Origin: Escherichia phage phiWec179
DNA length: 64,000 nt
Strand: one strand, 5' to 3'
Sequence record: LC739533.1
Shown here: piece by piece, positions 2,909-62,804 of the stretch
Numbering within the stretch: position 1 is the first letter of the stretch
How the letters are laid out: every line of letters starts with the position of its first letter
The notes under the pieces: generated by a model
Database searches by the model: none
What the model saw: only the letters and a program-made list of their open reading frames with translations
What the model was told of the DNA's origin: nothing
Translations under genes and position numbers: made by a program

Positions 2909-2914
2909 TACTTT

Positions 2915-3653: not shown

Positions 3654-3655
3654 TC

Positions 3656-3684: not shown

Positions 3685-3908
3685 GTTTTACATACAGAAG
3701 AGGAAGCGCCACCCCACGGCGTAAAGGCGGGGCTAACATACCAGGGGCACTGGTTGGAAGGTCGATCGCCGGGAGGCTGGGCGCTATATATTTGTAAAGA
3801 AATGTAAAGATAAAATAATCGCTTGCTTTCCTGGCTGGATCTGTTATTCTTATTACATGGCGAGGGGACACGGGAGCGCGAGACAATCACCGGACCTGCC
3901 CGTCATTC

Positions 3909-4020
3909 TGCAAATGAGAAAAATTCTCATTTGCAAATAAGACTCATTCGCATTTAATAATTGAATGAGAATCATTCTCATTCTCATTCGTATTTCGATT
4001 TTAAGTGAGAATAATTCTCA
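3909..4020. repeat. Three palindromic operator-like sites with core TGAGAA-N1-3-TTCTCA
   Basis: Palindromes at 3909-3935 (12-bp arms), 3963-3983 (10-bp arms) and 4006-4020 (7-bp arms). Confidence 0.7.
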
Positions 4021-4034
4021 TTTCGGTAATTTTC

Positions 4035-4219
4035 ACGTAAACTTTAGAATTTGCTTTTCAACTTTCACTTTTGTAAAAGCAAAAAAACTTTAAATACCTG
4101 GTGCGCGCGACTTTTTAAAAAATTTTTCTCGGTTTTTTGCTTTGAAATCTGGCCCACCAATTTGAGATAGTGTACGTAAACTTTAGAATTTGGTTTTGGA
4201 TTCTCACTTTTGTAAACTC
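4035..4219. repeat. Imperfect ~46-bp direct repeat pair plus TTGAGATA triplet
   Basis: ACGTAAACTTTAGAATTT identical at 4035-4052 and 4174-4191, with similar extensions ending ACTTTTGTAAA. TTGAGATA occurs at 4162, 4248 and 4271. AT-rich context. Confidence 0.7.
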
Positions 4220-4375
4220 GTAAAAAGTTTAAATAATTGTAGGGATTTTGAGATAGTTTGCTTGTAAGGTTTGAGATAATCCTTCCCGAAGATGTTACGC
4301 AGCCTACAGCCTACCTGAATGCTCGTCTAACGAGATTAACTCTAAAAGATGAGTGTTGGTGTAGCTAAAGAGAAA

Positions 4376-4402
4376 AGGCTCTCTACGGTGTTGTAGGAGC
4401 CT
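4376..4402. terminator. Intrinsic terminator hairpin, probably bidirectional
   Basis: Stem AGGCUC/GAGCCU with extended CUAC/GUAG pairing; T-rich tail on the minus strand (UUUUCUCUUU) after the leftward operon, weaker T-tract on plus. Confidence 0.55.
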
Positions 4403-4473
4403 TATTTCTGTGGCACAAAGTTGACGTATTCTTTTTAAAAACGAATTTTTTCAAAATATCACGAATATCGCCT

Positions 4474-5001
4474 TTATGGTATTTTGGCTGGGAACAGGAT
4501 TTTAATCAGATTGTTGTGGTATTGTCCTAAAAGATTCTGCCCTTTCCAGTTGGCAGGATTAAGCACCCCTGGTTCGTACATACCCATTCCAATTCCGTAA
4601 ACCTTATCATAAGGACTCGCCTCAACGAACGTTTTGAATTGGTACAGTCGCAAGTCAGAATAAAGATCAGGGTTCTGTGTATACTTCAAGCATAAGCCTC
4701 GCATTACGATACGCTCTCGGTACTCTTCCCACATGTCATTATTAAAACCAGACACCGCTCGACCCATGCGCTTGTAGTATGCCTGTCCCTTCTCGTCGTC
4801 ACGCTTCATTGAGTGATCAAGGATAGCTGCTGCGATTACCTGATCCTTGAACAGCAAAGCCTTACGCCACATCATGTATTGCTCTACACAACAGAAAGTT
4901 TCATTGTACCCTGGTTCCGTCTCTGTGAATGGTGCAATGTACCAATTGCTAAACACATCTTTATGTGAAAAGAAGAATACATATTCATTAGTTATTCGCA
5001 T
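4474..5001 (-). CDS. NADAR (YbiA-like, DUF1768) domain protein; candidate ADP-ribosyl-guanine hydrolase
   Basis: Recalled YbiA/NADAR family motifs: FFFSHKDVFSNWY, CCVEQYMMWRKALLF, RMGR, YTQNPDL...FVEASPYD..YGIGMG...NLLGQ. Confidence 0.8.
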   Translation of the reverse strand: MRITNEYVFFFSHKDVFSNWYIAPFTETEPGYNETFCCVEQYMMWRKALLFKDQVIAAAILDHSMKRDDEKGQAYYKRMGRAVSGFNNDMWEEYRERIVMRGLCLKYTQNPDLYSDLRLYQFKTFVEASPYDKVYGIGMGMYEPGVLNPANWKGQNLLGQYHNNLIKILFPAKIP

Positions 5002-5176
5002 TTTTCATGCCTCTTAAGACTTCAGCTTGCCCGTCTTGAAAAGCTTTCATCAGAACTATCTTAAGATTGACTTCCAAGCGTTCTTCATCCTCTTTATAAC
5101 AATCCAACACTGCCTTAAGTTCATCATAGTGGTTCAGAATAGGTTTAAAGATTTCATGATCTGCTAAACGTGCCAT
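4988..5176 (-). CDS. Hypothetical protein (62 aa)
   Basis: Start at MARLADHEIF with AAGGAG RBS; the track's upstream Met at 5212 has no RBS. Confidence 0.5.
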   Translation of the reverse strand: MARLADHEIFKPILNHYDELKAVLDCYKEDEERLEVNLKIVLMKAFQDGQAEVLRGMKNANN

Positions 5177-5189
5177 AGTTTCTCCTTTG

Positions 5190-5555
5190 TTAGTCCATCC
5201 ACCAGTAGCCATAAACTGCGTCTGCGTCGATGAGTTTGTGTTTGTTGTTCCGCATGTAGTCTAAGATAAGTAGACGTTTATTGTATCTGGAGAGATTATG
5301 ACCCTCTTTTCCGCCATAGTCAAAATATTTTGCAAGACTTTTACACTCAAACAAAATCAGTTCGGGAGTTTCTTCACATTGGTCTGTCTGGTACACTTGA
5401 CGGATGATCATGTATACGTCATCGTCTTCCGCTAAGTGCTCTACTGGTCCACACCCAGCAGGAATAAATTCATAGTCCCATCGAATCAGATGTTTCTCTA
5501 CTGCTTCAAAGAAATCCATTTTTTCGCTACGCATGATCTGAACATCAATTAACAT
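5190..5555 (-). CDS. Hypothetical protein (121 aa)
   Basis: ORF with AGGAGG RBS; overlaps the stop of the upstream gene. Confidence 0.55.
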   Translation of the reverse strand: MLIDVQIMRSEKMDFFEAVEKHLIRWDYEFIPAGCGPVEHLAEDDDVYMIIRQVYQTDQCEETPELILFECKSLAKYFDYGGKEGHNLSRYNKRLLILDYMRNNKHKLIDADAVYGYWWMD

Positions 5556-6561
5556 AATTTTCCTCCTGTCTCATTATTCCACCTGCTTGGTTGATAGCAC
5601 TTAAGACAACAGCCAAATCCTCACGCAGGAAGGTTTCACTATGACCGTCTTTCATGTGCAACGCTTCCACACAGCCGATAGACGGTAGGATCTGATCAGT
5701 CTTAGATTTTAGCTTACTCTCTAACGCCCTGCAAGCCTGGTAGGACGGCAGATCAAACAATGCTACACGTTGCATAAAGTAGTTATTATTTGCATTCTGA
5801 ATCTTCAAACGTATATCACTATCCTTTGCAATCCCCAGCTTGAAAGCTCCCGTATCTTCTCCATACTCATCAAGGATAACGTTGATGTAAAATTCTTGCT
5901 GTGATCTGCCTTTACATTCAGAACAACCATTCCCACTTAGATACTTATTAGGTGTTATCGTTTGTTCTCCGTGCTCACTACATAAATATTTAAACTTAGA
6001 CATGGTTCCCACCTTACCAACGAACCCTATAAACTGGTCCCCTCGTTCCTGGCAAGCTTCAGTCATACGGAAAATCCATTGCGCAGGAGTGTAACGATGG
6101 TTTTTAGAACAACGGCAAGCAAGCAGCCCATCTCTAAGACTGCTCCTCGTTACTTCAAACCTACCGTTACACACGCCAGCCTTTACATATTCGTCATGAG
6201 AACATACGGAACACTTAACTATCCAATAAGCCGCCCATCCTTTACTATCTAATCTATCACTACGATAATACTCACGCGGAACGTTATCAGGACACGCTTT
6301 GTTAAAGGTTGTGATATGGATTGAATCATCAATTAAACATGTTTGCCTTATTGCTTCCACCCTACAACCTTTACAACCACTTCCTATTTTAGCATTATCT
6401 ATAGAAGTTGTTCTCCATTCCCCATGTATAGAACATTCACAGGTTAGTTTAGTGCGTGCCCCCTTCCATTCACCATGCCACCCCGTAATGGTCCACGGTT
6501 TATCCTGGTAAGCTTGTTCTATTTCTTCCTGATATTCCTCCCAACTTTTAGCCCTCATCAT
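5545..6561 (-). CDS. T5orf172-type (GIY-YIG superfamily) domain protein with N-terminal Cys-rich repeats; homing-endonuclease-like
   Basis: C-terminus FKLGIAKDSDIRLKIQN...ACRALESKL...KDGHSETF fits the T5orf172 pattern; CxxC / C..HG repeats in the N-terminal part. Paralog of 10129..11082. Confidence 0.6.
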   Translation of the reverse strand: MMRAKSWEEYQEEIEQAYQDKPWTITGWHGEWKGARTKLTCECSIHGEWRTTSIDNAKIGSGCKGCRVEAIRQTCLIDDSIHITTFNKACPDNVPREYYRSDRLDSKGWAAYWIVKCSVCSHDEYVKAGVCNGRFEVTRSSLRDGLLACRCSKNHRYTPAQWIFRMTEACQERGDQFIGFVGKVGTMSKFKYLCSEHGEQTITPNKYLSGNGCSECKGRSQQEFYINVILDEYGEDTGAFKLGIAKDSDIRLKIQNANNNYFMQRVALFDLPSYQACRALESKLKSKTDQILPSIGCVEALHMKDGHSETFLREDLAVVLSAINQAGGIMRQEENYVN

Positions 6562-6575
6562 CCCCCCTACAACAA

Positions 6576-6593
6576 ATGCCCCTTGCGGGGCAT
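6576..6593 (-). terminator. GC hairpin (AUGCCCC-UUGC-GGGGCAU), terminator-like
   Basis: Between the AAA+ ATPase stop and the T5orf172 start; weak U-tract on the minus strand. Same GCCCCTTGCGGGGC core as the late terminator at 49347-49360. Confidence 0.35.
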
Positions 6594-6598
6594 CTTTA

Positions 6599-7738
6599 TT
6601 AGAACACGCTACTTAAGGTTGCAGATCGTGTAGTGGTTGGTTCCAGAACCACACGGAACGTATCCCCAGGTTTATCGCTCACTACTACAATCTTACCACC
6701 TTCGATCAGGTCACACTTCAAACCTTCGGCAGTAGCTTTCAGGTCGATGCGTGGATCGCCATCATCATCCAGGATAACGTAGCTGCTATCTTCGAGAGGC
6801 TCCAGTTCTTCGTCTTTCACGGCTTCCAGGTAGATGTTCAGTTCACATGCACCAGACAAGAACTTGGTAGGAGTGAACTCATGCCAGTTGTTGACCCAGT
6901 TAGGCTTGATAGCTTTACCGTTGACAACAATAGAGCTAATCGTCCAGCGTGCATCGTTACCCAGAGAGATACCCATCATCTCCAGACAGGTCTTGAACGT
7001 CATTTTCGGATAGAAGTTTAACTCTTCTACGATCCCTTGAATAACATCGAAAGACAGTTCAGTGCTAACATCCCACAAACGTTGGAAGCTTTCAACATGT
7101 TTGCGATTCTTCAGATTCTTGTCCAGGTAGTCCAGCATAGTTTCAATAGACAGTTTGTCGTAGTTGAAGCTATAGAAGATACGGCTCGGACGGTTGACGA
7201 AGTATTCCGAGATGTATCCGCTGTTCTTTGTCAGCATGAACAGTTTGTTACCGCTACCTGTGCCATCCAGCAGAGTCAGCAGTGCTTCCTGATCTTCCTT
7301 CTTGGAATACACTTTGTCGAACTCATCGAACAGTACTACTGCGCGTTCAGAGATCTTACTCATGAACTCCAGGAAATTGGCATCAGAATATGGCTGCGTT
7401 ACCAGAATAGTTGGGATTCCCAGGTCTTCCGCTTCCAACAGAGTGTTACTGATCAGTTTTGCCAGCATTGTCTTGCCACTGCCTTTTGTACCCGACAACA
7501 GGACACCTGTGTTCTTACCTTCTTTACTACGACGAGCGAAGGTACGGATAACGTGGGCTGCACGTTCTTTGGTTTCCCCGTACAGGCGATCAGGAATCGT
7601 GAACTTATCAGCGCGACTAAGAGAATAGTTACCATGTGGATCACAATTGACAGTCCAAACGCCAGCGGGGAGTTTATCAACCTCTACACCAAAATCTTTA
7701 TTAACAATTGCAACATCCCCATAAACTGTGTATTTCAT
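6599..7738 (-). CDS. AAA+ family ATPase
   Basis: Walker A GTKGSGKT, Walker B VVLFDEFD, downstream arginine-containing segment NRPSRI. Confidence 0.75.
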   Translation of the reverse strand: MKYTVYGDVAIVNKDFGVEVDKLPAGVWTVNCDPHGNYSLSRADKFTIPDRLYGETKERAAHVIRTFARRSKEGKNTGVLLSGTKGSGKTMLAKLISNTLLEAEDLGIPTILVTQPYSDANFLEFMSKISERAVVLFDEFDKVYSKKEDQEALLTLLDGTGSGNKLFMLTKNSGYISEYFVNRPSRIFYSFNYDKLSIETMLDYLDKNLKNRKHVESFQRLWDVSTELSFDVIQGIVEELNFYPKMTFKTCLEMMGISLGNDARWTISSIVVNGKAIKPNWVNNWHEFTPTKFLSGACELNIYLEAVKDEELEPLEDSSYVILDDDGDPRIDLKATAEGLKCDLIEGGKIVVVSDKPGDTFRVVLEPTTTRSATLSSVF

Positions 7739-7763
7739 TTACTTTCTCCTCTTCTGTTGGAAT

Positions 7764-7798
7764 AGACGTATTATCTCTTGTCTAATACGTCTTGTCAA
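7764..7798 (-). promoter_or_regulatory. Promoter (TTGACA-N17-GATAAT) embedded in a 10-bp inverted repeat
   Basis: Minus strand: -35 (7793-7798), -10 (7770-7775). Perfect inverted repeat AGACGTATTA (7764-7773) / TAATACGTCT (7783-7792) spans the -10 box. Confidence 0.5.
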
Positions 7799-7806
7799 TA
7801 CTTGTT

Positions 7807-8166
7807 TTAGATCCCTTCGCCTTTAGTGATGATAGCTTCCATCACCACAGCTTTCTTCTTACGTTGAACATCTTGACGGATCAGGAGGCTACCACCTTGA
7901 TCATCCTTATACTGCTTCATGATGATGAAGTTGTTGCCACACACAGCGCCGATAGCCACGTATGGGCGATTAGAATTATCCACATCCGCAGATGGGGTTA
8001 CATCCGTGCAAGTAAAGAACTTGCCATCAGGATCAGTATAAGCAAAGTGGCCTTTAGCAGTTACTGCAACTTCTCCGGTGCTTGTGGACTGTGCAGCCAC
8101 AAACGGTGCAGCAGATGCTACGAAACTTGCAGACAGCAGGGCTACAGCTAAAATAATCTTTTTCAT
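7807..8166 (-). CDS. Secreted protein with N-terminal signal peptide (119 aa)
   Basis: MKKIILAVALLSASFVASA then mature domain; AGAGGAG RBS. Confidence 0.65.
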   Translation of the reverse strand: MKKIILAVALLSASFVASAAPFVAAQSTSTGEVAVTAKGHFAYTDPDGKFFTCTDVTPSADVDNSNRPYVAIGAVCGNNFIIMKQYKDDQGGSLLIRQDVQRKKKAVVMEAIITKGEGI

Positions 8167-8178
8167 GGTGATCTCCTC

Positions 8179-8340
8179 TTATTCCAACAACATACACAAT
8201 GCAGCTACAACCAAGAACAGAGTAGCCACGCTTAAAGCGATAAACATTCCTAATTGAGAATGAAATTCGCCTATGATAGGTGCAGACAACGCACTTAGCA
8301 AACAACCTGTCAAACTTGCTTTGATAATAAGATCTAACAT
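8179..8340 (-). CDS. Small hydrophobic membrane protein (53 aa)
   Basis: MLDLIIKASLTGCLLSALSAPIIGEFHSQLGMFIALSVATLFLVVAALCMLLE; strong AGGAGG RBS; not in the ORF track. Confidence 0.45.
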   Translation of the reverse strand: MLDLIIKASLTGCLLSALSAPIIGEFHSQLGMFIALSVATLFLVVAALCMLLE

Positions 8341-15696: not shown

Positions 15697-16065
15697 ATGA
15701 AAGTCTTGAACTTCTACCATTTAGGTAAAGTTGTTCCCGACACTGCAATATACATTGGACGCGCGATGCCCCACTTCGGGTTGAAAGCGTCAAAGTTTGC
15801 CAACCCGTTCAAACTGAAAGAGGATGAACCAAGAGGTGCTACCATTCAAAGATACAAAGAGTGGTTGTGGGATCAGATCCGTTCTGGTAAGATAACTCTT
15901 GAAGATTTGTTGGAGTTGGAAGGTAAAGATGTAGTCTGCTTTTGCTCGCCCCAGAAATGTCATGGAGATGTGCTCGTTGCAGCCGTGGCATGGGCGCGAA
16001 GGGAATACGATAGACGTAATCCACCGTTTACGGATGGGTATTGGAACTGGGAGGAAAATCTATGA
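15697..16065 (+). CDS. DUF4326-like protein
   Basis: Recalled family motifs IYIGRAMPHFGL, FANPF, VCFCSPQKCHGDVL. Confidence 0.45.
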   Translation: MKVLNFYHLGKVVPDTAIYIGRAMPHFGLKASKFANPFKLKEDEPRGATIQRYKEWLWDQIRSGKITLEDLLELEGKDVVCFCSPQKCHGDVLVAAVAWARREYDRRNPPFTDGYWNWEENL

Positions 16066-16415
16066 AGAATATTATTGCGGTGGATGTATTTGGTGCAAGC
16101 GTCTTGCAAGACAAGCAAGCTATGCTGTACCACTATGAAGAAGATAAGCTTACGTACATTTATGTCGGGTCAGAAAAGTATCGTATCTTTGATTTGGCTT
16201 TGTTGAAAGAGGGTGATCTCCCTTTAACAGAGAAGCTATATGGCTTCAAATTCAGACGAGATGTAAAGCTTGATGGGAAGATTGCAGTGATTCAAGTTGA
16301 CGCGTATTATATCATTACCTTTGTCACCCCTGTGTTCAGCGATCTGAACGGAGAAGGTGCTATTAATGATGTGATCGTCCTGAAAGTAGGTAATGCATTG
16401 CACGATGTGAAATAA
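16062..16415 (+). CDS. Hypothetical protein (117 aa)
   Basis: Start at MKNIIAVDV with GGGAGG RBS; overlaps the upstream stop. Confidence 0.55.
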   Translation: MKNIIAVDVFGASVLQDKQAMLYHYEEDKLTYIYVGSEKYRIFDLALLKEGDLPLTEKLYGFKFRRDVKLDGKIAVIQVDAYYIITFVTPVFSDLNGEGAINDVIVLKVGNALHDVK

Positions 16416-19361: not shown

Positions 19362-20853
19362 GTCGATGGAAGAATTAGTTAAATATTATGTCCACACAGA
19401 AGACCTGACAGACGCAGAGTTTACCAAGATTTATGATCTGTGCGAACAGCTTCAACCTGGCCCGTGGAACAGTGAAGAAGACTTCCGTGCCGATGTTAAT
19501 CAAGATACAGGGTTTTTGTTCTTCGATCCTGCTAATGGCATTGATGCCGTACACAACGAAGATTATATCCCAGCAGGTCTTTCTGTTACCACTACAGAGC
19601 ATTTCGTTGATCTGCTTTTGGAGACAGCTTGGTGTGATTCCAAACCAATCTACTACTGCATGAAGGATACGCTACGTATGGCAGCAAGTCGCCTGTATGA
19701 CGGGAACTCTCGCTTATATACGGCTGTAGCCGAGCTTTATGGTAATGGTTGGACTGCCGATCAACTCCAAAAAGCTTGGGAAGAAGGGCGTGGTGGGCGT
19801 GACGTTGTTATTTTCTCTGAAGTTTTAGGGGTGGATTCTATCGCTTATGAAAATATTCCACGCTTAGGGACAAAACCAGAAATCATTGATGGAGAAGAAA
19901 TGTTAGATCTTATTTTAGCTAAAGTGGCAGGGCGATCTATTCACGAAGTGTGCGTATCTACCAGAAAGATCTCCACAAGTCAAATGGAATCTCTTTTAAA
20001 GATTTTCACCCTGGTGACTGGTGAAGGGTATTGGAAAGATGCTGAACATTTTCTGATGTATAGTCGTGGTCTGTCTGAACACTACTCTTTCTATAGTTCT
20101 AAGTCGGGGATTGATGGTCACAACAGTCCACAAGGATTAGAAATAGGTGTTGACGAATTTATCAAACTGTTTTTGAAGCATTTAGGTATTGACAATACCG
20201 AGAAATCATTGGAAGATATCCTTGCTGACTTAACAAAAGAAGGAGAAGAAGTGGAAGAGAATACTTTTGAAGTTGAAGAATATGTGGAAGAATACCTTCC
20301 GAACCCTGGGTTCCCTCCAGAGGGTAATCCTTATGTGAAGATCGTCTGCCGTAACGGGCAAACTTTCACAGGTCCAGCCGACGATATGGGTTGGAGGGTC
20401 GATGAGAACCATCCCCATGATCTGGATATGGTGAAATATATGATTGTTCCGCGTGTAGCCAAAGTGGAGGCTGCTCCAGATGAGGTAGTTGCTCCGGTAT
20501 ATGCACCGAAGCCACGTTATCGTAAGACGCGCCAAAAGCCTCCTGTAGGTAAGAAGCCAGTTGTGCGTATTCTCTACACTACACAACAAACGTACATGTT
20601 TAAGAATGTGGACAGTGTGCAGGTTACAGGTGAGAAAGTGTATATCCAGTATGCTCGTAATATTGCAGAAGGTATTGTTGAGTCTGTTGTTTCCGAGATC
20701 GACAGCAATCTGCTTCTCGCAGTGGTGATTGAAGAGAATGGACACCGTGATAATTTCTTAGCTAACATCGACGGTTCTTGGGATTACCAAGGGCATGATG
20801 GTACTGCCGTTAAAGGTGGTAAGCTGATGGGACGACAGTTCCTTTCTAAATAA
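19354..20853 (+). CDS. Hypothetical protein (499 aa)
   Basis: Long ORF followed by an intrinsic terminator; no motif recognised. Confidence 0.6.
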   Translation: MNKSMEELVKYYVHTEDLTDAEFTKIYDLCEQLQPGPWNSEEDFRADVNQDTGFLFFDPANGIDAVHNEDYIPAGLSVTTTEHFVDLLLETAWCDSKPIYYCMKDTLRMAASRLYDGNSRLYTAVAELYGNGWTADQLQKAWEEGRGGRDVVIFSEVLGVDSIAYENIPRLGTKPEIIDGEEMLDLILAKVAGRSIHEVCVSTRKISTSQMESLLKIFTLVTGEGYWKDAEHFLMYSRGLSEHYSFYSSKSGIDGHNSPQGLEIGVDEFIKLFLKHLGIDNTEKSLEDILADLTKEGEEVEENTFEVEEYVEEYLPNPGFPPEGNPYVKIVCRNGQTFTGPADDMGWRVDENHPHDLDMVKYMIVPRVAKVEAAPDEVVAPVYAPKPRYRKTRQKPPVGKKPVVRILYTTQQTYMFKNVDSVQVTGEKVYIQYARNIAEGIVESVVSEIDSNLLLAVVIEENGHRDNFLANIDGSWDYQGHDGTAVKGGKLMGRQFLSK

Positions 20854-37070: not shown

Positions 37071-38021
37071 GTGTTTATGGGACAAATTATTCTTGACAAT
37101 CGTGGTGGAAAAGAATATAGTGTCTGTGATTATCACCGAGTAATGCTGCCTTACACAAGGCAGTTCTCGGCCCAACCGTCACAGAACGTATATGTCTTTA
37201 ACGGTGTCCCTACGAAAGGGAAACAAGGCTTCATAGCCCTTAAGAGCATGGGCTTTAAGATGGTAATGGATTTGGATGACTCTTTAAACATTCCCCAAGG
37301 CCATATGCTGGAAGACATTTTTGATGCAGGTATTCGAGAAGACTTGCAATGGTTCCTCGAACGCAGTGATCTTGTAACGACAACAACCCCTGCTCTCCAG
37401 GTGGAATTGTCCCAGTACAATCCTAACGTGCATATTATCCCAAATGGTTTACCGTTTGACGAGGATCAGTTTACGTTAACTCGTGATCGCTACTCCAAGT
37501 CCCCTGTAGTTTGGGCTGGAAGTGAAACACACAAGCAAGACCTGGCTCTACTACCGAACTTCGGGAGTGACTTAACGATTTGCGGATTCCGCAGAGATAG
37601 TGAAGTGTTAAGTAGTCAGCAATGGACCGATATACGTGAAAAGGTGGCTCCAAGCTGCAAATATGAGGCTGTTAGACCATATGAGAGCTATATGGAATCT
37701 TACGACGGTCATCAGATAATGCTTGCACCTCTAACAGATAACATGTTTAATAACGCTAAGAGTAACCTGAAGATTCTGGAAGCAGGTGCCAAGGGTTTAC
37801 CTTTAGTGTGTTCTCCCCGTGAAAACTACTTCACCGAAGAGTTTAAAGATTTGTTGTTCTTTGCAGAAACAAAAAGCGAGTGGGAAGATATTGTTAATTA
37901 CCTGATCCAGTGTCCTGATGTGGGTATTGAAAAGGGATTAGCTTTAGCTAAGTATGTTCGTAAGCATTACCATATTGATGTGCTGAATGAACGCCGTAGA
38001 TTATTATTTGAGGAGTTATAA
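37071..38021 (+). CDS. GT-B fold glycosyltransferase, paralog 2
   Basis: KSNLKILEAGAKGLPLVCS; shares CDYHR(I/V)(V/M)(M/L)P and other blocks with the previous gene. Start codon GTG 37071 or ATG 37077. Confidence 0.6.
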   Translation: MFMGQIILDNRGGKEYSVCDYHRVMLPYTRQFSAQPSQNVYVFNGVPTKGKQGFIALKSMGFKMVMDLDDSLNIPQGHMLEDIFDAGIREDLQWFLERSDLVTTTTPALQVELSQYNPNVHIIPNGLPFDEDQFTLTRDRYSKSPVVWAGSETHKQDLALLPNFGSDLTICGFRRDSEVLSSQQWTDIREKVAPSCKYEAVRPYESYMESYDGHQIMLAPLTDNMFNNAKSNLKILEAGAKGLPLVCSPRENYFTEEFKDLLFFAETKSEWEDIVNYLIQCPDVGIEKGLALAKYVRKHYHIDVLNERRRLLFEEL

Positions 38022-38299
38022 TGCTGAATACTTTTGATTTTGAATACACTACGAAAAGTGGTTTTAATGTTGTGGTGGAGGTTGACTATTACTACGAAGA
38101 GCCTGATCCACACTCACGGGAAAGTGATTGGGATTACCACGGCGGGTTACTGATCGACGGTATCCGTTTCTATGCGGGTCTGGAACAGATTAATGCGGAA
38201 GACATTAACGTCACCGTAACAGAAATCGCATACCAATTCAAAAAACATATGGAGGCATTAGAAGCCGAGTACATGATGGAAACTAACGAATCATTTTAA
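38021..38299 (+). CDS. Hypothetical acidic protein (92 aa)
   Basis: ATG overlaps the upstream stop. Confidence 0.5.
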   Translation: MLNTFDFEYTTKSGFNVVVEVDYYYEEPDPHSRESDWDYHGGLLIDGIRFYAGLEQINAEDINVTVTEIAYQFKKHMEALEAEYMMETNESF

Positions 38300-38314
38300 C
38301 AGGAGAGGATGACC

Positions 38315-38953
38315 ATGAGGTTAGTACAAGGTTGGGGGATTAATGATATAGGTAGTATCCCTAAAACAGGTTTTATCCGAGTAGCTTACAGGTGTTGGTC
38401 AAGAGTTTTAGAAAGATCTCACAGTAAAGCTTGGAAGAATAAGTATCCTACATACAAGGATGTAACATGTTGCGAAGACTGGAAATATTTTTCAGTATTC
38501 ATGGACTGGATGGAGACACAACCTTGGGAAGGAAACGATTTGGATAAGGATTTGTTAGGAGATGGTAGCTTATACTCCCCTCAAACTTGTGTTTTTATAC
38601 CTCCTGAAATAAATAAAGCTTTAGCTGCAAATAAAAAACAAGGAGAATTCTTATCTGGAGTCTGGTTTCAAACAAAGTCTAAAACTATGGTTAATAGTTT
38701 AAAACGTCCTTGGGCTGTTAAAGCCCATAGACAGGGTAGTAAAAAACCTGTATATTTAGGAAACTATTATTCAGAACAAGAAGCCCATAATGTGTGGTTG
38801 ACTACACGCGCAGAGGATATGTTATGGTGGTGCGACCAATGGGAAAACAACGAGAAGTATAATAAATCTTGGAAACCTGTGTTTAAAGAAGCTTTTAATA
38901 AGAAAGCTGAAGCTTATAGAGGGAGGATAAAAAATGTCATACATTGTCACTAA
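38315..38953 (+). CDS. AP2-domain homing-endonuclease-like protein, paralog A
   Basis: N-terminal W..RC...Y..V.C.DW..F..F..W and LDKDLLGDGSLYSPQTC segment; C-terminal AP2-like VYLGNYYSEQEAHNVW. No catalytic His seen in the HNH-like segment. Confidence 0.5.
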   Translation: MRLVQGWGINDIGSIPKTGFIRVAYRCWSRVLERSHSKAWKNKYPTYKDVTCCEDWKYFSVFMDWMETQPWEGNDLDKDLLGDGSLYSPQTCVFIPPEINKALAANKKQGEFLSGVWFQTKSKTMVNSLKRPWAVKAHRQGSKKPVYLGNYYSEQEAHNVWLTTRAEDMLWWCDQWENNEKYNKSWKPVFKEAFNKKAEAYRGRIKNVIHCH

Positions 38954-40715
38954 GTATGGTTTTGATGTAGATTTAAGCAAAGAGGGGCACACAGGGTGTC
39001 CCCGTTGTATGAAGAACGGAAAAGATAGATCGAAGAATAACTTGATGTGTTATGGGTTGGATTCTAACGATGAGCATAAAGGAGCAAAATGCTTCGCGTG
39101 TGAGTACACAATCCCCAGCGTTGAATGGTTACGAGAGAATGGTGAAGTTTTAGAAGAAGAGGAGGATATTGTGGGTTCGGAATTTAATAAAGAGATTCAT
39201 CGTAAGATTGTAGAAGAAACAGGCACTAACCCACGAGGCTACCGTGGGATCAAGGAAGAATATTCTAAATTCTACGGTGTACGTTACCAGTACAAACAAG
39301 AAGAATCTGGTGTTGTTGTGGAACATACTTTGTATCCAACAACTATCGGTAAAGAACTGGTAGGTTTTAAGCGTCGTATCCACCCTAAAGACTTCTCCAA
39401 GCCCATTGGTCAAGTAGGTAAAGATGTAGATTTGTTTGGACAAGTTCGTTTCCTTGAGCGTTCCCACACCGTAATCATTACTGGTGGTGAACATGATGCC
39501 TTGGCAGCATATCAAATGTTGGCAGAAGGTCTTGACAGGAAATATGAATTACCAGCAGTAGTTAGTGGCACAACTGGTGAAACCAGTATGTACAAACAGG
39601 TACAGGCACAGTACCCTTTCTTTGAGAAGTTCAAGAAGATCATCGTCTGCATGGATAATGATAAGGCAGGTAAAGAAGCTTTTGAGAACATTGTGAAGGT
39701 GTTGCCTCGTAATAAAGTTTACCTGATGAAGATGGAACTGAAAGATGCTAATGAATACCTGGTGCAAGATAAAGCAAAAGATTTTGTGAAAGCTTATTGG
39801 GGTGCAAAACTTTATACCCCAGCGGGTGTTTATGCTTCGAACGAACTTTATGAAGCTGCAATGGACTGTCTGGATGCACAAGTGATCACCCTCCCTCCGT
39901 TCATGCGTACTGCTGCGAACATGTTGGGTGGTGGTCTGGTAGAAGAAGAGATCACAGTTATTCTGGCTAAAACGAGTATCGGTAAGACGTTGATGGTCAA
40001 TGAGATCACCAAACACATTATCGTGGCTCATCCAGAACATGTGCTGGGTATTCTGTCTCTGGAGGCAACGTATAAGAAATACTCCCGTAACCTTCTTTCT
40101 TCGTTCCTGCATATTCCTTTGCATCGTAAGACTAAGGAAGAAAAGGCTGCGATCCTGGAAGAGAACAAGGAAGCTATCAATAACTTCTACGTTCGTGAAG
40201 ATGGTTCTCCTCGCTTCTTTGTTTGTGATGATCGTGGTGCAGACATTGATTCAATCAAGGAGAAAGTGCTGGAGATGATCATCTACTTCGGCATTACCAT
40301 CCTGGTAATTGACCCATACTCGGATCTGTTGTCGGGGATGAGTGTTCAGGAACAAGAAGAGTTGGCAACGTGGTTGAAGCGCATCATGAAAGAATACGGC
40401 ATCACGATCATTGTAATCTCGCACGTTAAGAAAGCTGCCAACAATGGTAACGAACACTTAACAGAAGATGATGCAATGGGTAGTAGCTTCTTGGCTAAAG
40501 GCGCAGGTATTACACTGGCACTGGAACGAGATAAGGCTAACGATGACCCCGTACTTAGAAACACAACTTTTTGTTATATTCTCAAAAACCGAGAGTTTTC
40601 AGAAACTGGTCCGGCTGGGGAGTTTTATTACGATATTAAAACTGCCACGCTACACGACAAAGCACAGTATTTTGCTAACCCTGATAATGCAGGTGGTGCA
40701 GAAGGCGCGTATTGA
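38934..40715 (+). CDS. Bifunctional primase-helicase (T7 gp4-like)
   Basis: N-terminal zinc ribbon CPRC...CFAC, TOPRIM-like VIITGGEHDALAAYQ, DnaB-like Walker A ILAKTSIGKT and IIVISHVKK. Confidence 0.8.
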   Translation: MSYIVTKYGFDVDLSKEGHTGCPRCMKNGKDRSKNNLMCYGLDSNDEHKGAKCFACEYTIPSVEWLRENGEVLEEEEDIVGSEFNKEIHRKIVEETGTNPRGYRGIKEEYSKFYGVRYQYKQEESGVVVEHTLYPTTIGKELVGFKRRIHPKDFSKPIGQVGKDVDLFGQVRFLERSHTVIITGGEHDALAAYQMLAEGLDRKYELPAVVSGTTGETSMYKQVQAQYPFFEKFKKIIVCMDNDKAGKEAFENIVKVLPRNKVYLMKMELKDANEYLVQDKAKDFVKAYWGAKLYTPAGVYASNELYEAAMDCLDAQVITLPPFMRTAANMLGGGLVEEEITVILAKTSIGKTLMVNEITKHIIVAHPEHVLGILSLEATYKKYSRNLLSSFLHIPLHRKTKEEKAAILEENKEAINNFYVREDGSPRFFVCDDRGADIDSIKEKVLEMIIYFGITILVIDPYSDLLSGMSVQEQEELATWLKRIMKEYGITIIVISHVKKAANNGNEHLTEDDAMGSSFLAKGAGITLALERDKANDDPVLRNTTFCYILKNREFSETGPAGEFYYDIKTATLHDKAQYFANPDNAGGAEGAY

Positions 40716-40721
40716 TTCAGA

Positions 40722-40745
40722 AGGGGCGCAAGCCCCTCTTGACTT
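40722..40745 (+). terminator. Terminator-like hairpin (AGGGGC-GCAA-GCCCCT)
   Basis: After the primase-helicase stop; followed by CTTGACTTTTGATT. Confidence 0.45.
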
Positions 40746-40798
40746 TTGATTGAGGAATGTGATACCCTTCAGGTTGAGTTACATAATATGGAGGACTA

Positions 40799-43396
40799 AT
40801 GAGTAAGTTTACATGGGATATTGAAGCAACCGCATTACTGAACAATGACACAATTGATTACCTGGCAAGCCCTTATCGATTGAAAGACACTTTTGGTATG
40901 CATTGTATTTGTCTGGAAAACCACGAAACAGGAGAGATCATTGCTTTTCACGATGGTCCTAAGTACATTTTCGATGGTCGTCCTTATGAAGAGTCTGACG
41001 GTAAGTACACTTATGTACTGAAGGAGTATGTGGCACAAGAATACACACACTTTCCTCTGTCAGATTTTCCAGATTTTGTCAACCATACAGGCAAGTTCGC
41101 AGATAAGCCTGAATACCTCGTAGAAATGGCTGTAGCCCACAACGGCATCAACTATGACCACTTGGCAGTTAAGCTTTACTACGGGCTGAATTACAGCGTT
41201 AAATACAATACTTGGGGTGATTCGAAAGTTAAGATTATTGATACCCTGATCCTTAGTAAAGTATTGAACCCTGATCGCAAGGTTGATGGTAAACCTGGGC
41301 ACAACTTGAATGCTCTTTCTAAAAAAGCTGGCGGTGATGTTAAGATTGATTTCCGTAAAGAGCTTCCAGAAGGAGAACGATTCAAGACTTTCGCAGCAGA
41401 TATGTTGTACTACTGTATCTACGACAACAAGGCAACTACAGCAGTATATTATTACCTCATGGAAGAATGGGGCGATTATAAGAAGTGGCAAGAGCCGTTC
41501 GACTTGGAGCAACGTATTGCGGATATCATCACCCGTCAAGAACACCGTGGCTTTAAGTTCAACATGCAACAAGCTGAACAGAACCTGGAATTCTTGGACA
41601 AAGAAATGGAACGTCTACGTTTGTTGGTAGAGCCTATTCTTCCACCTAAGCCAGCGACTAAAGGTTATCTGAAAGATTTTATTCCGCCGAAACTTCAAAT
41701 CAAGAAGAACGGTGAGCCAACAAACCATATCATCAGGTTTGCGGAGAAACATGGCGGTAGCCTTGAAGAACGTGAAGGTGATTGGTGGCTGCTTGTTTTA
41801 GATAAAGAGTTTAAGTTACCGATCTCAAGTGAAGAACCTATTTGTGAACCTACCATTCCGTCTACGCTGAATGATACGACACACATTAAAAACTGGCTTG
41901 TAGGTTTAGGTTGGGTTCCGTCTGAATATAAAGACAAGGATTTGACGCTTAAATCTGGTTCGAAGATCAAGAAAGATCCTGACGACTTAGAGAAAGGTAT
42001 TCTGTCTTATGTCAAACAGACCTTGGAAAGCAATTTCTGTAATGACCGTTGCGAACACTTACAAGCCGATGCTGAAACACTGGAGCTTAGAATCCGTGAA
42101 CGTCTGGCTAAAGGGAAAGGTCGTGGTCTTAAAGTGCTGACCAACCCATGCTTCACGAAGGGGCAGGAGAAAGAGATTTGTCCTAATCTTGAAGCACTGG
42201 GCGAGAAGTTCCCGTATGCCACACAGATTGTGCAGTACCTGACGTACAAACATCGTCGAAACTCTATTTTGGGCGGTGGTGCAGATTGGGAAGACGATGA
42301 GGAAGATCAAGAATACGACAAAGGTTTCTTGGCAGCAGTTCGTGCCGATGGTCGTATAGCGACTCCAGCGGCTACATGTGACGCTGCAACATCTCGTATG
42401 AAGCATCGCTCTGTTGCTAACGTTCCTCGCGTTACATCGTTGTTTGGGTACGAAATGCGTAACTTGTTTGGGGTAGAAACACCGCGTTACTTCCAGATCG
42501 GTTATGACTTTGACTCCTTGGAAGCAAAGATTGAGTCGCATTATTGTTGGCGCTACGAACCGGAGCCTCATGAATACTGTAACGCTCTCTTGTTGGAGAA
42601 GCCTAACGATGTTCATACCATGATGGCAAGACGTATCACAGAAACTATTGGACGTAAGTTTGAACGTAGTCCAGCTAAATCTGTTAAATACGGGATTACA
42701 TATGGAGCACAGGCAGACAAAGTTGCTAAGACAATTGGTAGTGATAAGTACACAGGACAACTGGTATTTGATGCGTTCTGGGAAGCAGCTTTCCCGTTAG
42801 CACAACTGAAAGAGAAGTTGAATGCTTTCTGGGTTAACACTGGCAAGCAGTATGTTCTCGGTATTGATGGACGTAAAGTTCCAACACGATCTGCACATGC
42901 AATCTTAAACTCCTTGTTCCAAAGTGGCGGGGTTATCTGTGCCAAGCGTGCAATGGTAATCTATGACGATATGATTGAAGAGGAAGGTTTAGCTGTTGAC
43001 TTCTTCGTAGATGACTGGAAGAATAAAGAGTTCGTTCAGCAAATGATTGCTTACCACGATGAAGCGCAGCTTGAAGTATCTCGTAACTTGGTGGAATTTA
43101 AATGGTTCTCCAAAGAGTCTTTAGGTTGGGTTAAAGTGGATGACGAGAAAGAGCAGAAGAAAATAGATGCGGAATGTCTTGCAAAAGCTAATGAATGGAA
43201 GCATAATAAAGAGAAAGAGACAGGGCAGATTTGGGCTAACGTTCACGAATCACCTAAAGGTGGTTGGTTTACCGCTTATAGTCGTGCCGGAGAACTTGCT
43301 TCTCTTGCTGTTATCAAAGCTGGGGAATATTACAAACTAAACGTTCAGCTTACCGCTGGATACGATGTTGGTAGTTCCTGGGCCAGTTGTCATTGA
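40799..43396 (+). CDS. Family A DNA polymerase with 3'-5' proofreading exonuclease
   Basis: Exo I FTWDIEAT; motif A IGYDFDSLEAK; motif B RSPAKSVKYGITYG; motif C IAYHDEAQ. Confidence 0.85.
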   Translation: MSKFTWDIEATALLNNDTIDYLASPYRLKDTFGMHCICLENHETGEIIAFHDGPKYIFDGRPYEESDGKYTYVLKEYVAQEYTHFPLSDFPDFVNHTGKFADKPEYLVEMAVAHNGINYDHLAVKLYYGLNYSVKYNTWGDSKVKIIDTLILSKVLNPDRKVDGKPGHNLNALSKKAGGDVKIDFRKELPEGERFKTFAADMLYYCIYDNKATTAVYYYLMEEWGDYKKWQEPFDLEQRIADIITRQEHRGFKFNMQQAEQNLEFLDKEMERLRLLVEPILPPKPATKGYLKDFIPPKLQIKKNGEPTNHIIRFAEKHGGSLEEREGDWWLLVLDKEFKLPISSEEPICEPTIPSTLNDTTHIKNWLVGLGWVPSEYKDKDLTLKSGSKIKKDPDDLEKGILSYVKQTLESNFCNDRCEHLQADAETLELRIRERLAKGKGRGLKVLTNPCFTKGQEKEICPNLEALGEKFPYATQIVQYLTYKHRRNSILGGGADWEDDEEDQEYDKGFLAAVRADGRIATPAATCDAATSRMKHRSVANVPRVTSLFGYEMRNLFGVETPRYFQIGYDFDSLEAKIESHYCWRYEPEPHEYCNALLLEKPNDVHTMMARRITETIGRKFERSPAKSVKYGITYGAQADKVAKTIGSDKYTGQLVFDAFWEAAFPLAQLKEKLNAFWVNTGKQYVLGIDGRKVPTRSAHAILNSLFQSGGVICAKRAMVIYDDMIEEEGLAVDFFVDDWKNKEFVQQMIAYHDEAQLEVSRNLVEFKWFSKESLGWVKVDDEKEQKKIDAECLAKANEWKHNKEKETGQIWANVHESPKGGWFTAYSRAGELASLAVIKAGEYYKLNVQLTAGYDVGSSWASCH

Positions 43397-43423
43397 CATT
43401 TACTTGATTTTAAAGGAGTTTTT

Positions 43424-44020
43424 ATGCTTACTGTATATGGTGAAGGTATTAATGATCTGGAGGGTGAGAGCACTCTACCTGGTAGTAAGAAACTGACTCC
43501 TCATTATATGAAATGGATGGCTATGTTGGGGAGGTGTTACTCCCCTTGCCAACAAGAACGTGATCCTTGTTATCATGGGGTGCTGGTCTGTGAAGAATGG
43601 AAGCTGTTTTCCAACTTCTATGCTTGGTTAAAAACTTGGGAAGAGTGGGAGAAATTAGAATTAGACAAGGATATTATTGGAGGGGGAGTTTACTCCCCTA
43701 ACACCTGCCTTTTAGTAACAGGAGATCTTAACAAGTTCTTAGCTTATAGAGTGAGTAAAAGATCTCATGGAACTATGGTAGGTTTACATTACGAAAAAGA
43801 TCGTAAGAAGTATAAAGCCAATATTAAAACAGGCTCACGCATGGTAACACTTGGACGTTTTGATACTGAACTTGAGGCGCATCTTTGTTGGTTGAAAGCT
43901 AAAGCAGAACAACTTACAAAGTTTTTTGAAACAGAAGACAAAAGAGTTGTTCCACATCTTAAAGCATTGTATAATGATATGCTTGAACATATTGAACAAC
44001 GTAAGGAGTGGACACGATAG
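43424..44020 (+). CDS. AP2-domain homing-endonuclease-like protein, paralog B
   Basis: W..MLGRC...Y..V.VCEEW..F..F..W, LDKDIIGGGVYSPNTC, AP2-like MVTLGRFDTELEAHLCW; paralog of 38315..38953. Confidence 0.5.
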   Translation: MLTVYGEGINDLEGESTLPGSKKLTPHYMKWMAMLGRCYSPCQQERDPCYHGVLVCEEWKLFSNFYAWLKTWEEWEKLELDKDIIGGGVYSPNTCLLVTGDLNKFLAYRVSKRSHGTMVGLHYEKDRKKYKANIKTGSRMVTLGRFDTELEAHLCWLKAKAEQLTKFFETEDKRVVPHLKALYNDMLEHIEQRKEWTR

Positions 44021-44028
44021 GAGGGTAT

Positions 44029-44223
44029 ATGCGTTACGATTTAGATTACTTTGGTATGCCTTACCTACCCGATGAGTTCGCAGATGAGGCGGAAGATCGT
44101 GAGTGGGATGATGGGGATATCCGTTGTTGGTCTTGTGGTAAAGACATGTCTTACGAACAACACATGCACAACGATGGCTTCTGTCCGCACTGTCAGAATG
44201 AAATAGATTTAGAGGAGGACTAA
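44029..44223 (+). CDS. Small zinc-ribbon protein (64 aa)
   Basis: CWSCGK...CPHCQN; AGGAGG RBS. Confidence 0.5.
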   Translation: MRYDLDYFGMPYLPDEFADEAEDREWDDGDIRCWSCGKDMSYEQHMHNDGFCPHCQNEIDLEED

Positions 44224-44225
44224 TA

Positions 44226-44393
44226 ATGACTTCCGGTATTATGATCTGTTATAAGATCGTTCGTATTGTTGGGGATGAAGTTACTACTCGCCACTTTATG
44301 ATTGAAAATCATGCTGATGAGGTGTATAATGATTGGCTGGAACAAGGCGGATACGACTTCGTATCTAAAGAAACTTTCCACTTAGAAGTATAA
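44226..44393 (+). CDS. Small hypothetical protein (55 aa)
   Basis: GGAGGA RBS then ATG; not in the ORF track. Confidence 0.4.
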   Translation: MTSGIMICYKIVRIVGDEVTTRHFMIENHADEVYNDWLEQGGYDFVSKETFHLEV

Positions 44394-44402: not shown

Positions 44403-44621
44403 ATGCGTAAATTAGTGAGTTTTAATGTTTCAATTCTGATTGATGAACAAAATGAAGATGTTATTAAAGGTCTTGCAAATAAGATTGAAGGTGGAATGAC
44501 GGAAGCAGAAGTATGGGAAGAATGTGCTCGACTTTATGAAGCAGGTGTTCTTGAAGTCTTGGAAGATGAGATTAATATGGATGATGTTGTTAAAGTAACT
44601 GTGGAGCGTATCAATGACTAA
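44403..44621 (+). CDS. Hypothetical acidic protein (72 aa)
   Basis: AAGGAG RBS. Confidence 0.5.
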   Translation: MRKLVSFNVSILIDEQNEDVIKGLANKIEGGMTEAEVWEECARLYEAGVLEVLEDEINMDDVVKVTVERIND

Positions 44622-45219
44622 ATCAAGCCAGATTACCCTTGCCCGTGAGATCCTTACTGTTCTTAAGATTGCTGATCCTCGTTCAATCCTGGCAGGTGGC
44701 GCGGTCCGTGATTGGTACATGCTGGACATTGCAGGGCGAGATCTGGACTTCTATACATCATTCCAGCCACACCGAAACATAGATCAGGTGATTACGTTTA
44801 TCAAAGAGAATCTTAAAGGCACCAATGTAACCGTGTTAGGTCAGGAGGAAATGGGTGACAACTATGAGTCTATGATCGGACTGAAACATGTGTTTGAGTT
44901 TATCCGTGATGATCAGGTTTGCAATCTCATGATCATGGAACCATGCTACATGAGCAACATCCTGAAAAACTTTGATCTTTCTGTTTGCAAAGCTTCGTTT
45001 GATGGTGTAGAATATTACTTCGATCCTGACTTCCTGGTAACAGATGCAACAAATATTTGCTTCGTGCATAAGGATGTTAAAGTGGATGCGAAACACGTCC
45101 GTAAGATCGCGGATCGCTTCCCGCACATGCGTTTTGTACGTGACTTGGATGTGCAGCGTCGCACGCAAGATAAGGCTCTACCAAAGTTCGAAGATACTGA
45201 TGAAGATATTCCTTGGTAA
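44614..45219 (+). CDS. Minimal nucleotidyltransferase (CCA-adding/poly(A) polymerase head-domain-like) with SSB-tail-like C-terminus
   Basis: ILAGGAVRDWYMLDIAGRDLDFY resembles the GGxVRD...DxD head-domain motif. Protein ends EDTDEDIPW, resembling the SSB tip DDDIPF. Confidence 0.45.
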   Translation: MTKSSQITLAREILTVLKIADPRSILAGGAVRDWYMLDIAGRDLDFYTSFQPHRNIDQVITFIKENLKGTNVTVLGQEEMGDNYESMIGLKHVFEFIRDDQVCNLMIMEPCYMSNILKNFDLSVCKASFDGVEYYFDPDFLVTDATNICFVHKDVKVDAKHVRKIADRFPHMRFVRDLDVQRRTQDKALPKFEDTDEDIPW

Positions 45220-62183: not shown

Positions 62184-62804
62184 TTATACTCCTGTCATAG
62201 CCGTAAGGCCGAAGTTATTACTTGTTGAAAGAACTGAACCAGAATCGCTAACCATCATGCGTTCAACAGCAGTTTCCGTCGCCCACTCATTCCACCAAGT
62301 AGAATATGTATTTTCAGGCAGACCAACAAAGTTAATGAAGCGGTACAGACGGTTAGAAGATTCAACAATGGTATATGCTTCACAAGTGATTGCTGCATTA
62401 TCATCGCCAGCTTCTGGGTAAATAAATTCTTCAGAAGGTTGGGTGTTGAAACTTGTTGTTACTGTGTCTGCGCCTACTGTGACAACAACATCCATATTAT
62501 AATAGCGTTGGTCACGATCGTAATAAGATTTGTAAGAATTGATTGTGTCAATATAAATGTTCTTGGCAATCTCTGCCAGGAAGATTCGGTCCACAATATC
62601 TTTCTTTCGTGCTACACCGATAATCTCTTGCAGGTAAGGAACACCGAACGTGGTGTTAAGGAACCATTCCCCACGATATGTTTTGAGGGTGATCCCTAAT
62701 GTCTGCGCTGCAATCTCGGTACGAGTGGTTGTCAAAACAAGATCCCCATCATCCATGATGAGGTCGTTGTCTGATCCCAATTTTAAATCATATGGGATAC
62801 CCAT
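62184..62804 (-). CDS. Baseplate protein candidate (206 aa)
   Basis: Located between the spike-like gene and other structural genes; family call is positional. Confidence 0.45.
   Translation of the reverse strand: MGIPYDLKLGSDNDLIMDDGDLVLTTTRTEIAAQTLGITLKTYRGEWFLNTTFGVPYLQEIIGVARKKDIVDRIFLAEIAKNIYIDTINSYKSYYDRDQRYYNMDVVVTVGADTVTTSFNTQPSEEFIYPEAGDDNAAITCEAYTIVESSNRLYRFINFVGLPENTYSTWWNEWATETAVERMMVSDSGSVLSTSNNFGLTAMTGV

Follow-up and report, generated by a model that had tools for sequence, protein, structure and literature searches.

The 64,000-nucleotide (nt) stretch of Escherichia phage phiWec179 DNA considered here (record LC739533.1, one strand, 5' to 3'; hereafter, the window) carries two free-standing open reading frames, ORF A and ORF B, at the outer borders of a module in which a primase-helicase gene is followed by a family A DNA polymerase gene (Table 1). 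Both are new members of an already described class of phage genes, the IPA-HNH (ICP1-like Phage AP2-associated HNH) homing endonuclease genes (HEGs), and both encode an N-terminal nuclease-like domain that lacks the catalytic histidine, followed by an AP2 DNA-binding domain. The region in question, from 38000 to 44300, is 100% identical to the corresponding DNA of Escherichia phages phiWec181 and phiWec186 (LC739534/LC739535; Stephanstirmvirinae, Phapecoctavirus). The last 20 nt of ORF A lie within the primase-helicase gene, and ORF B begins 28 nt past the polymerase stop at 43396. Both genes are labelled "hypothetical protein" in GenBank. A second in-frame ATG precedes ORF A at 38309 (the ORF list gives 38309-38953), and the start at 38315 is preferred because the upstream ATG lies too near the Shine-Dalgarno sequence, while 38315 is better spaced from the AGGAG upstream.

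An initial annotation of this DNA had described a paralogous pair of ORFs at 38315-38953 and 43424-44020, flanking the primase-helicase and polymerase genes, and this description stands in full. The coordinates agree with the ORF list and, for the start of ORF A, also with the GenBank coding sequence (86433-87071 of LC739534, equivalent to window positions 38315-38953); ORF A immediately precedes the primase-helicase gene and ORF B immediately follows the polymerase gene; and the two proteins are paralogs with 33% identity over 175 amino acids (aa; BLASTP E=3e-28). Both also match the same protein family, phrog_953, annotated as "HNH endonuclease" (E=1.2e-51 for ORF A and 1.3e-69 for ORF B). 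There is no third copy in the window, as judged by tblastn searches with both proteins; a weak AP2-like match at 62562-62651 lies antisense within tail/baseplate genes and was dismissed as chance. Predicted sigma-70 promoters and terminators around the two genes were no more frequent than expected from shuffled sequence.

Table 1. Coordinates of the two genes, their domains and motifs, and the neighboring genes, numbered along the window.
Feature	Position	Strand	Details
ORF A	38315-38953	+	Free-standing gene of the IPA-HNH type, highly probable homing endonuclease; 212 aa from ATG 38315
ORF A N-terminal nuclease-like domain	38372-38638	+	~aa 20-108; from alignment with ORF B and homologs
ORF A motif D77-K78-D79 ... 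Y87-S-P ... C ... N100	38543-38614	+	
ORF A AP2-like DNA-binding domain	38657-38830	+	~aa 115-172; ~10-aa insertion relative to ORF B; predicted from the family alignment
Primase-helicase gene	38934-40715	+	Toprim + DnaB-like; Pfam DnaB_C 3.1e-15, Toprim_2 4e-10; phrog_239 5e-162
Recoded 5' tract of primase-helicase gene	38935-39054	+	Immediately after ORF A; candidate for a co-conversion tract or an immune form of the target
Family A DNA polymerase gene	40799-43396	+	Pfam DNA_pol_A 4.6e-14; phrog_17 3.5e-109
ORF B	43424-44020	+	Free-standing gene of the IPA-HNH type, highly probable homing endonuclease; 198 aa
ORF B N-terminal nuclease-like domain	43487-43759	+	aa 22-112; helical subdomain + beta-beta-alpha finger
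ORF B motif D81-K82-D83 ... Y90-S-P ... C95 ... N103	43664-43732	+	
ORF B AP2 DNA-binding domain	43781-43927	+	~aa 120-168; three strands + helix, then C-terminal helix to aa 196

Close relatives of the phage show what these loci look like when unoccupied. The phages phiWec188 and phiWec190 are ~96% identical to the window over the region and carry neither ORF A nor ORF B; the alignment with phiWec188 falls into three colinear blocks separated by two clean gaps, precisely at the ORF A and ORF B sites, such that both genes are exact presence/absence insertions. At the ORF A site of phiWec188 (within ~15,850-16,150 of LC739537), the primase gene begins, with GTG, directly after an upstream 92-aa ORF and a ribosome-binding site. 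In the window, that ribosome-binding site is taken over by ORF A, which provides the primase gene with a new one, together with a new ATG. At the other site (within ~20,350-20,650 of LC739537), ORF B is replaced in phiWec188 by a 35-nt spacer containing a GC-rich hairpin, and PsgM04F and phAPEC8 likewise have a short intergenic spacer in its place. Both genes are absent from phiWec188, phAPEC8, and PsgM04F. The initial annotation had regarded the two genes as homing-endonuclease-like selfish elements and had proposed a comparison with relatives lacking the insertions. That view is supported by the clean insertions/deletions in a 96%-identical phage and by the fact that ORF B is more alike between genera than the adjoining polymerase sequence. 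The intein- or intron-less alleles suggested at the time as cleavage substrates are inapplicable, because both genes are free-standing; the cognate substrates would instead be the HEG-less intergenic junctions.

The two genes differ in how widely they are distributed. Orthologs of ORF B that are 64-90% identical occur in 36 further phage records (38 including phiWec181 and phiWec186), and in all three that were inspected, the ortholog directly follows the polymerase gene: nieznany (Phapecoctavirus), PD06 (Justusliebigvirus), and Klebsiella phage KP2025 (unclassified). This adjacency is kept even in cases of differing downstream neighbors. The ratio of non-synonymous to synonymous substitution rates (dN/dS) for ORF B is 0.08-0.26, and the gene is under purifying selection. 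Relative to PD06, the synonymous rate (dS) is 0.64 for ORF B and 1.98 for the adjacent C-terminus of the polymerase; the lower value for ORF B fits a more recent horizontal spread of the HEG.

ORF A, in contrast to ORF B, is an isolated lineage. Among 50,697 phage records, it is carried only by phiWec181 and phiWec186, with all other matches below 40% identity. In a collection of 5.8 billion proteins, its nearest relative is 43% identical, apart from one 99%-identical cluster (P0207) that is evidently the same gene. The 43% relative resides on an unrelated metagenomic phage contig (SRR30535860_62012, locus 3899-4537), where it, too, overlaps the start of a Toprim/DnaB primase-helicase gene, although that primase-helicase is only 38% identical to the one in the window. 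A second family member lies two genes downstream on the same contig (8504-9079), after a 716-aa gene without a Pfam match. By these sequence comparisons, the ORF A lineage tracks primase-helicase genes across distant phages. The contig also bears an HNH gene of the classical PF01844 type.

The primase-helicase gene itself is altered immediately after ORF A. Its first 120 nt differ from phiWec188 at 31 positions, versus ~0-5 differences per 60 nt farther along the gene, and the codon changes in the first 180 nt are largely silent (21 synonymous, 8 non-synonymous). Over this tract, the HEG-less phages are identical to one another at 111-113 of the 120 positions, and the window allele matches them at 84-90. 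Conservation of the tract among HEG-less phages is unusually high, given that two of the phages compared, phAPEC8 and nieznany, share no more than ~78-79% identity with the window over this region. A search of the phage collection for a donor returned no other record above 76.7% identity to the window version. The recoded tract could, on this evidence, represent the ORF A target after co-conversion or in a form immune to cleavage, and the primase-helicase gene is the probable target gene of ORF A.

A feature that sets these proteins apart from canonical HNH enzymes is found in the nuclease-like domain. The motif reads LDKDLLGDGSLYSPQTC in ORF A and LDKDIIGGGVYSPNTC in ORF B. In predicted models (predicted local distance difference test score, pLDDT, ~90), it is placed on a beta-hairpin (strands ~78-81 and 96-99, in ORF B numbering), followed by a helix (100-107) that bears N103. 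Histidines occur at positions 38, 140, 160, 212, and 214 of ORF A and at 27, 51, 115, 122, 153, 178, and 189 of ORF B; none lies in or near the motif of either protein, and none is common to both within the N-terminal domain. An alignment of 33 homologs shows R37, Y50, W59, F65, W68, D81, K82, D83, Y90, S91, C95, N103, and G120 (ORF B numbering) to be invariant. In a larger set of 312 domain instances from 302 proteins, the motif residues remain nearly fixed: D in 303, K in 304, D in 305, Y in 308, C in 308, and N in 303. Conversely, no column of the N-terminal domain exceeds 24% histidine in 207 domain instances. Judging from these alignments, the catalytic histidine is absent across the whole family, and not just from the two proteins in which the initial annotation had pointed out an HNH-like motif without it.

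That annotation had also called for alignment to the HNH_3 and AP2 profiles. Neither ORF A nor ORF B (at E<=1) nor any of the 33 homologs has a Pfam HNH or HNH_3 match, and the position that directly follows the conserved aspartate at the end of strand 1, where an HNH_3 enzyme has its catalytic histidine, is lysine in 304 of the 312 domains. Pfam and NCBIfam scans of the two proteins revealed no nuclease family, the only match being a sub-threshold AP2 for ORF B. Searches against the sequences of the PDB were no more productive. Full-length ORF B (phmmer/hmmsearch) gave a match to the chromodomain-like protein At1g02740, judged to be spurious, and no nuclease; the N-terminal domain profile (hmmsearch) gave weak matches to deoxycytidine kinase and ferritin, rejected as chance, and PacI was not listed.

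The AP2 assignment of the initial annotation, while weak for single sequences, is solid at the level of the family and the predicted structure. Pfam AP2 reaches only E=0.095 with ORF B (13.5 bits, relative to a gathering cut-off of 33.3) and finds nothing in ORF A, such that neither protein attains the gathering score of the AP2/ERF family (PF00847). The 33-sequence family profile, however, matches the AP2 repeats of the plant protein WRI1 at E=2.9e-5 (ERF1 more weakly), nine of the 33 homologs match Pfam AP2 directly (best E=2.2e-7), and the AlphaFold2 model of ORF B (pLDDT 90.8) displays three strands and a helix at residues 121-168. Unlike the plant AP2/ERF domains of known structure (ERF1, 1GCC/2GCC; TEM1, 7ET4; WRI1, 7WQ5), the domain is joined here to a nuclease-like domain in a phage protein.

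This architecture corresponds to a class that was named in 2023. Barth, Dunham and Seed (PMC10448857) defined the IPA-HNH HEGs from gp59, gp115-116, and gp209 of Vibrio phage ICP1; their N-terminal HNH-related domain is too divergent for Pfam HNH_3, being detected by HHsearch only, and is followed by a C-terminal AP2 domain. The published set comprises 431 genes in 240 phage genomes, 29% of which lie beside DNA polymerase genes, and is enriched in the Barba and Flaumdra phages (PMC10448857). In a tblastn search, 85% of the ORF B query aligns with ICP1 gp209 (E=2e-6), and the gp209 motif, LDKDIILKGNKCYHPDLCTFVPSEVN (in longer form, VLDKDIILKGNKCYHPDLCTFVPSEVN), follows the pattern LDKDII...Y-H-P..C-T-F-V....N, sharing LDKDII...Y-x-P..C-x-F-V....N with the proteins described here. 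The same search also finds the Barba and KIL-like (Flaumdravirus) phages, which are rich in copies (KIL1 is matched at six places). Like the published members, ORF A and ORF B possess an N-terminal domain that HNH_3 does not detect and a C-terminal AP2 domain, stand free beside essential genes, and are patchily distributed among relatives. They differ from the published set in that the copies reside in a Stephanstirmvirinae coliphage and in that ORF A is so isolated. Taken as a whole, these are an ordinary kind of element, and their assignment to a homing endonuclease family is highly probable.

An exhaustive profile search shows the family to be very large, with 31,373 cluster representatives (clustering at 50% identity) reaching E<=0.001 and 9,920 reaching E<=1e-10. 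Some representatives (among P0051-P0059) carry two or three tandem N-terminal nuclease-like domains, such as P0051, with three stretches in 571 aa; others begin with DUF723/DUF4379 zinc-ribbon repeats or end in an MqsA-like helix-turn-helix tail. The name IPA-HNH was encountered in no other paper of the literature searched, and the original description (PMC10448857) makes no mention of a missing histidine, a tyrosine, or PacI. The reading of the class offered below, in which these three are connected, is our own.

PacI is an HNH enzyme in which a tyrosine replaces the histidine general base, with an aspartate and an asparagine binding a single metal ion (PMC4081073, section 37; PMC3384342; PMC5714182, group 20). 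Its motif, confirmed against the PDB, is VDRSDSFEGYSPQNARLACFICN (in longer context, LGVDRSDSFEGYSPQNARLACFICNRIK), and it can be laid over that of ORF B residue by residue: D92 of PacI corresponds to D81, R93 to K82, Y100-S-P to Y90-S-P, and N113 to N103. The D-[K/R], Y-S-P, and N elements are thus common to PacI (3LDY/3M7K; His-Me finger group 20) and to both phage proteins, and the spacing from tyrosine to asparagine is 13 residues in all three. A loose pattern, D[KR]x6-10Y[ST]Px10N, fits PacI; in a six-frame translation of the window (128,000 residues), its only matches are ORF A and ORF B, with the caveat that it was defined post hoc, after the match to PacI had been seen. PacI is the only solved enzyme that the family appears to resemble, and that the domain works like PacI is the leading hypothesis.

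It is fairly probable that ORF A and ORF B are diverged copies of an IPA-HNH HEG at the two borders of the primase-helicase/polymerase module, homing under the guidance of AP2 by means of a PacI-like active site. Each protein has an N-terminal domain predicted to be a beta-beta-alpha-metal (His-Me-finger-type) nuclease, the AP2 DNA-binding domain, and a C-terminal helix. Upon co-infection with a HEG-less relative, the AP2 domain would anchor the protein within or beside the conserved neighboring gene: in the case of ORF A, at the 5' end of the primase-helicase gene, and in that of ORF B, at the polymerase 3' end or the intergenic junction. The nuclease domain would then nick or cut the HEG-less allele, and recombinational repair would copy the endonuclease gene, along with some flanking sequence, into the recipient. 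With respect to catalysis, the aspartate (D81 of ORF B) and the asparagine (N103) may hold a single metal ion, while the invariant tyrosine of the Y-S-P loop (Y90 of ORF B, Y87 of ORF A) would activate the water and the invariant lysine (K82 of ORF B), at the canonical histidine position and equivalent to Arg93 of PacI, would assist. Should the protein be active, we would give this tyrosine mechanism, which is drawn by analogy with PacI, an even chance of being correct.

Several points weigh against this account. Profile comparison (hhalign) of the N-terminal domain with PacI, or with a nine-member PacI family, gave E=0.16-0.36 and a probability below 1%; one of the three local alignments pairs LDKD..YSP with VDRS..YSP, and the other two pair unrelated or different short segments. 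A Foldseek search against the PDB returned nothing significant, and PacI was not returned. The two Cys4 zinc sites of PacI are absent, as there are no CxxC pairs in the ORF A/B family; C95 is the sole invariant cysteine, and the helix sequence is G-D-L-N or P-E-I-N, versus CxxCN at the helix of PacI. PacI is further distinguished by being a homodimeric restriction enzyme, by its lack of an AP2 domain, and by its arginine, instead of lysine, after the aspartate. Because the profile and Foldseek comparisons are non-significant and the Cys4 zinc sites are missing, ORF A and ORF B are not filed as members of the PacI family. As for homing, the flanks of ORF B contain no recoded tract relative to the HEG-less allele, so that the target of ORF B is not indicated; the recoded tract beside ORF A could simply be a recombination boundary; and no cleavage has been reported for any IPA-HNH member, including the two described here, in the literature searched. 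One rival view of the fold holds that the N-terminal domain is unrelated to HNH and His-Me fingers, that it is some other undescribed nuclease or a protein-interaction fold attached to AP2, and that its beta-beta-alpha likeness is coincidental. The weak profile and structure matches just described can be set on its side, and the confidently modeled hairpin and helix, with the near-invariant motif residues upon them, on the other; it is regarded as very improbable.

A second possibility accepts an active finger of the HNH type and assigns the role of general base to the invariant lysine (K82 of ORF B, K78 of ORF A), making the domain a His-to-Lys variant of I-HmuI-type HNH_3, with a tyrosine that is structural. 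The motif L-D-K-D...N-K-x-Y-S-P-x-T-C-x-F-V-x4-N does overlay the HNH_3 consensus v-D-H-x-D...N-L-x-x-x-T-x-x-x-N, with the lysine falling at the position of the D-H histidine, and this lysine is conserved like the tyrosine (304 versus 308 of 312 instances). The PHROGs families of both proteins are annotated as HNH endonucleases, alongside AP2-HNH families; the HHsearch matches of Barth et al. were to HNH domains (PMC10448857); and canonical AP2-linked endonucleases are of the HNH_3/"HNN" type (PMC5714182, group 2; PMC2248197). These canonical HNN-AP2 HEGs and I-HmuI (group 2; PF13392 + PF00847) share with ORF A and ORF B the order of nuclease finger and AP2 domain, the lifestyle of free-standing or intron-borne HEGs in phages, and the lack of zinc-binding cysteine dyads (PMC2248197; PMC5714182). 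The canonical enzymes, however, retain the D-H histidine (PMC2248197), display DNR, NLRE, and EN boxes, and match Pfam HNH_3, and ORF A, ORF B, and their homologs have none of these. An hhalign comparison of the N-terminal domain profile with I-HmuI, based on an approximate I-HmuI sequence, was not significant, with a probability of 0.2%. A lysine base is, on the whole, an unlikely explanation. F-CphI, another free-standing phage HEG of unusual type, was considered as a member of the same family and rejected, being an Endo VII-type enzyme.

A third view is that the nuclease-like domain is dead, as in the Smad MH1 domain and other His-less His-Me fingers, and that the proteins are only sequence-specific DNA binders, such as regulators of the replication operon, whose patchy occurrence stems from ordinary recombination or from other nucleases. 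The family-wide loss of the catalytic histidine invites this view, as two of the three His-less groups in a survey of His-Me fingers are considered inactive (PMC5714182). Transcription factors have arisen from AP2 domains by co-option; in relatives, the same neighborhood houses HEGs of other classes, which might act in trans; and no biochemical activity has been reported for the IPA-HNH class in the literature searched. Nevertheless, the putative metal-binding and water-activating residues (D, Y, N, and K) are near-invariant across sequences that are ~30% identical overall, which would be unexpected in a dead domain. Moreover, the 31,373 cluster representatives and the several copies in many phage genomes, with the six places in KIL1 as an example, form the pattern of a self-propagating element; lineages follow the same neighboring gene across distant phages; and PacI is a fully active His-less finger with this motif. 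A dead domain is consequently judged to be rather improbable. The initial annotation had left open whether the proteins are inactive or use a non-canonical active site. The second alternative is favored by the near-invariance of the D-K-D, Y-S-P, C, and N residues, by the dN/dS of 0.08-0.26, and by the likeness to the active, His-less PacI.

The neighborhood of these genes is populated by other mobile elements in related phages. For example, in PsgM04F (OR584014), the gene for a T5orf172 + DUF723 homing endonuclease of 297 aa (locus 3597-4490) separates the primase-helicase gene from the polymerase gene; the window has no more than an 83-nt spacer at that position. PsgM04F is labelled as a Pseudomonas phage yet is ~97% identical to the Escherichia coli phage described here, and its host assignment looks doubtful. 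At the same position, phAPEC8 (locus 3383-4618) and phages like it carry two genes, encoding a hypothetical protein and a putative N6-adenine methyltransferase; both are absent from the window, where the short spacer at 40716-40798 includes a terminator-like hairpin (40722-40737). The polymerase genes themselves have also received insertions. In nieznany (locus 4618-8187), an in-frame insertion of 324 aa after KSVKYG shows the hallmarks of an intein, namely, a cysteine as the first residue, a ...TGN end, and a cysteine as the next residue. In PD06 (locus 1159-4473), a probable intein is likewise inserted in frame after the KSVKYG sequence; its polymerase is 239 aa longer than that of the window, and the 294-aa gap segment in the alignment includes displaced polymerase sequence, such that the limits of the insertion are approximate. 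The polymerase of the window has no insertion at KSVKYG when aligned with these two. Finally, the polymerase of Klebsiella phage KP2025 is split, being annotated as two pieces with a gap of ~480 nt.

Comparison with phiWec188 also revealed divergence elsewhere around the two genes. At 44677-45217, within a nucleotidyltransferase-like ORF (44614-45219), a block of sharp divergence (12-29 differences per 60 nt, versus 0-6 on both sides) resembles an allele swap of the nucleotidyltransferase and, as such, another recombination mosaic boundary, ~600 nt downstream of ORF B. Upstream of ORF A, divergence is moderately raised (8-12 differences per 60 nt) at 37460-37940, in a glycosyltransferase-like ORF (37071-38021) that is the second such gene upstream of ORF A.

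By itself, the discovery of two more HEGs of a class named in 2023, in a position that is frequent for that class, is routine phage biology. What lends it wider meaning is that the family is labelled "HNH endonuclease" in databases though it is without the catalytic histidine. If Y90, K82, D81, and N103 are indeed catalytic, His-Me fingers that rely on tyrosine would be commonplace in phages, as opposed to the curiosity of one restriction enzyme, and annotation pipelines would gain a definable motif, D-K-D-x5-9-Y-S-P-x2-C-x7-N. For the homing process, phiWec181 and phiWec188, which are 96% identical and differ by both genes, constitute a natural donor/recipient pair, with the recoded 120-nt tract as the candidate target. 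It is tempting to suggest, albeit tentatively and with somewhat less than even confidence, that PacI and its few relatives are zinc-stabilized, domesticated cousins of a mainly phage-borne lineage of homing nucleases, the IPA-HNH class, and that the target of ORF A is the conserved 120 nt with which the primase-helicase gene begins, a stretch that would have been synonymously recoded in this phage for immunity.

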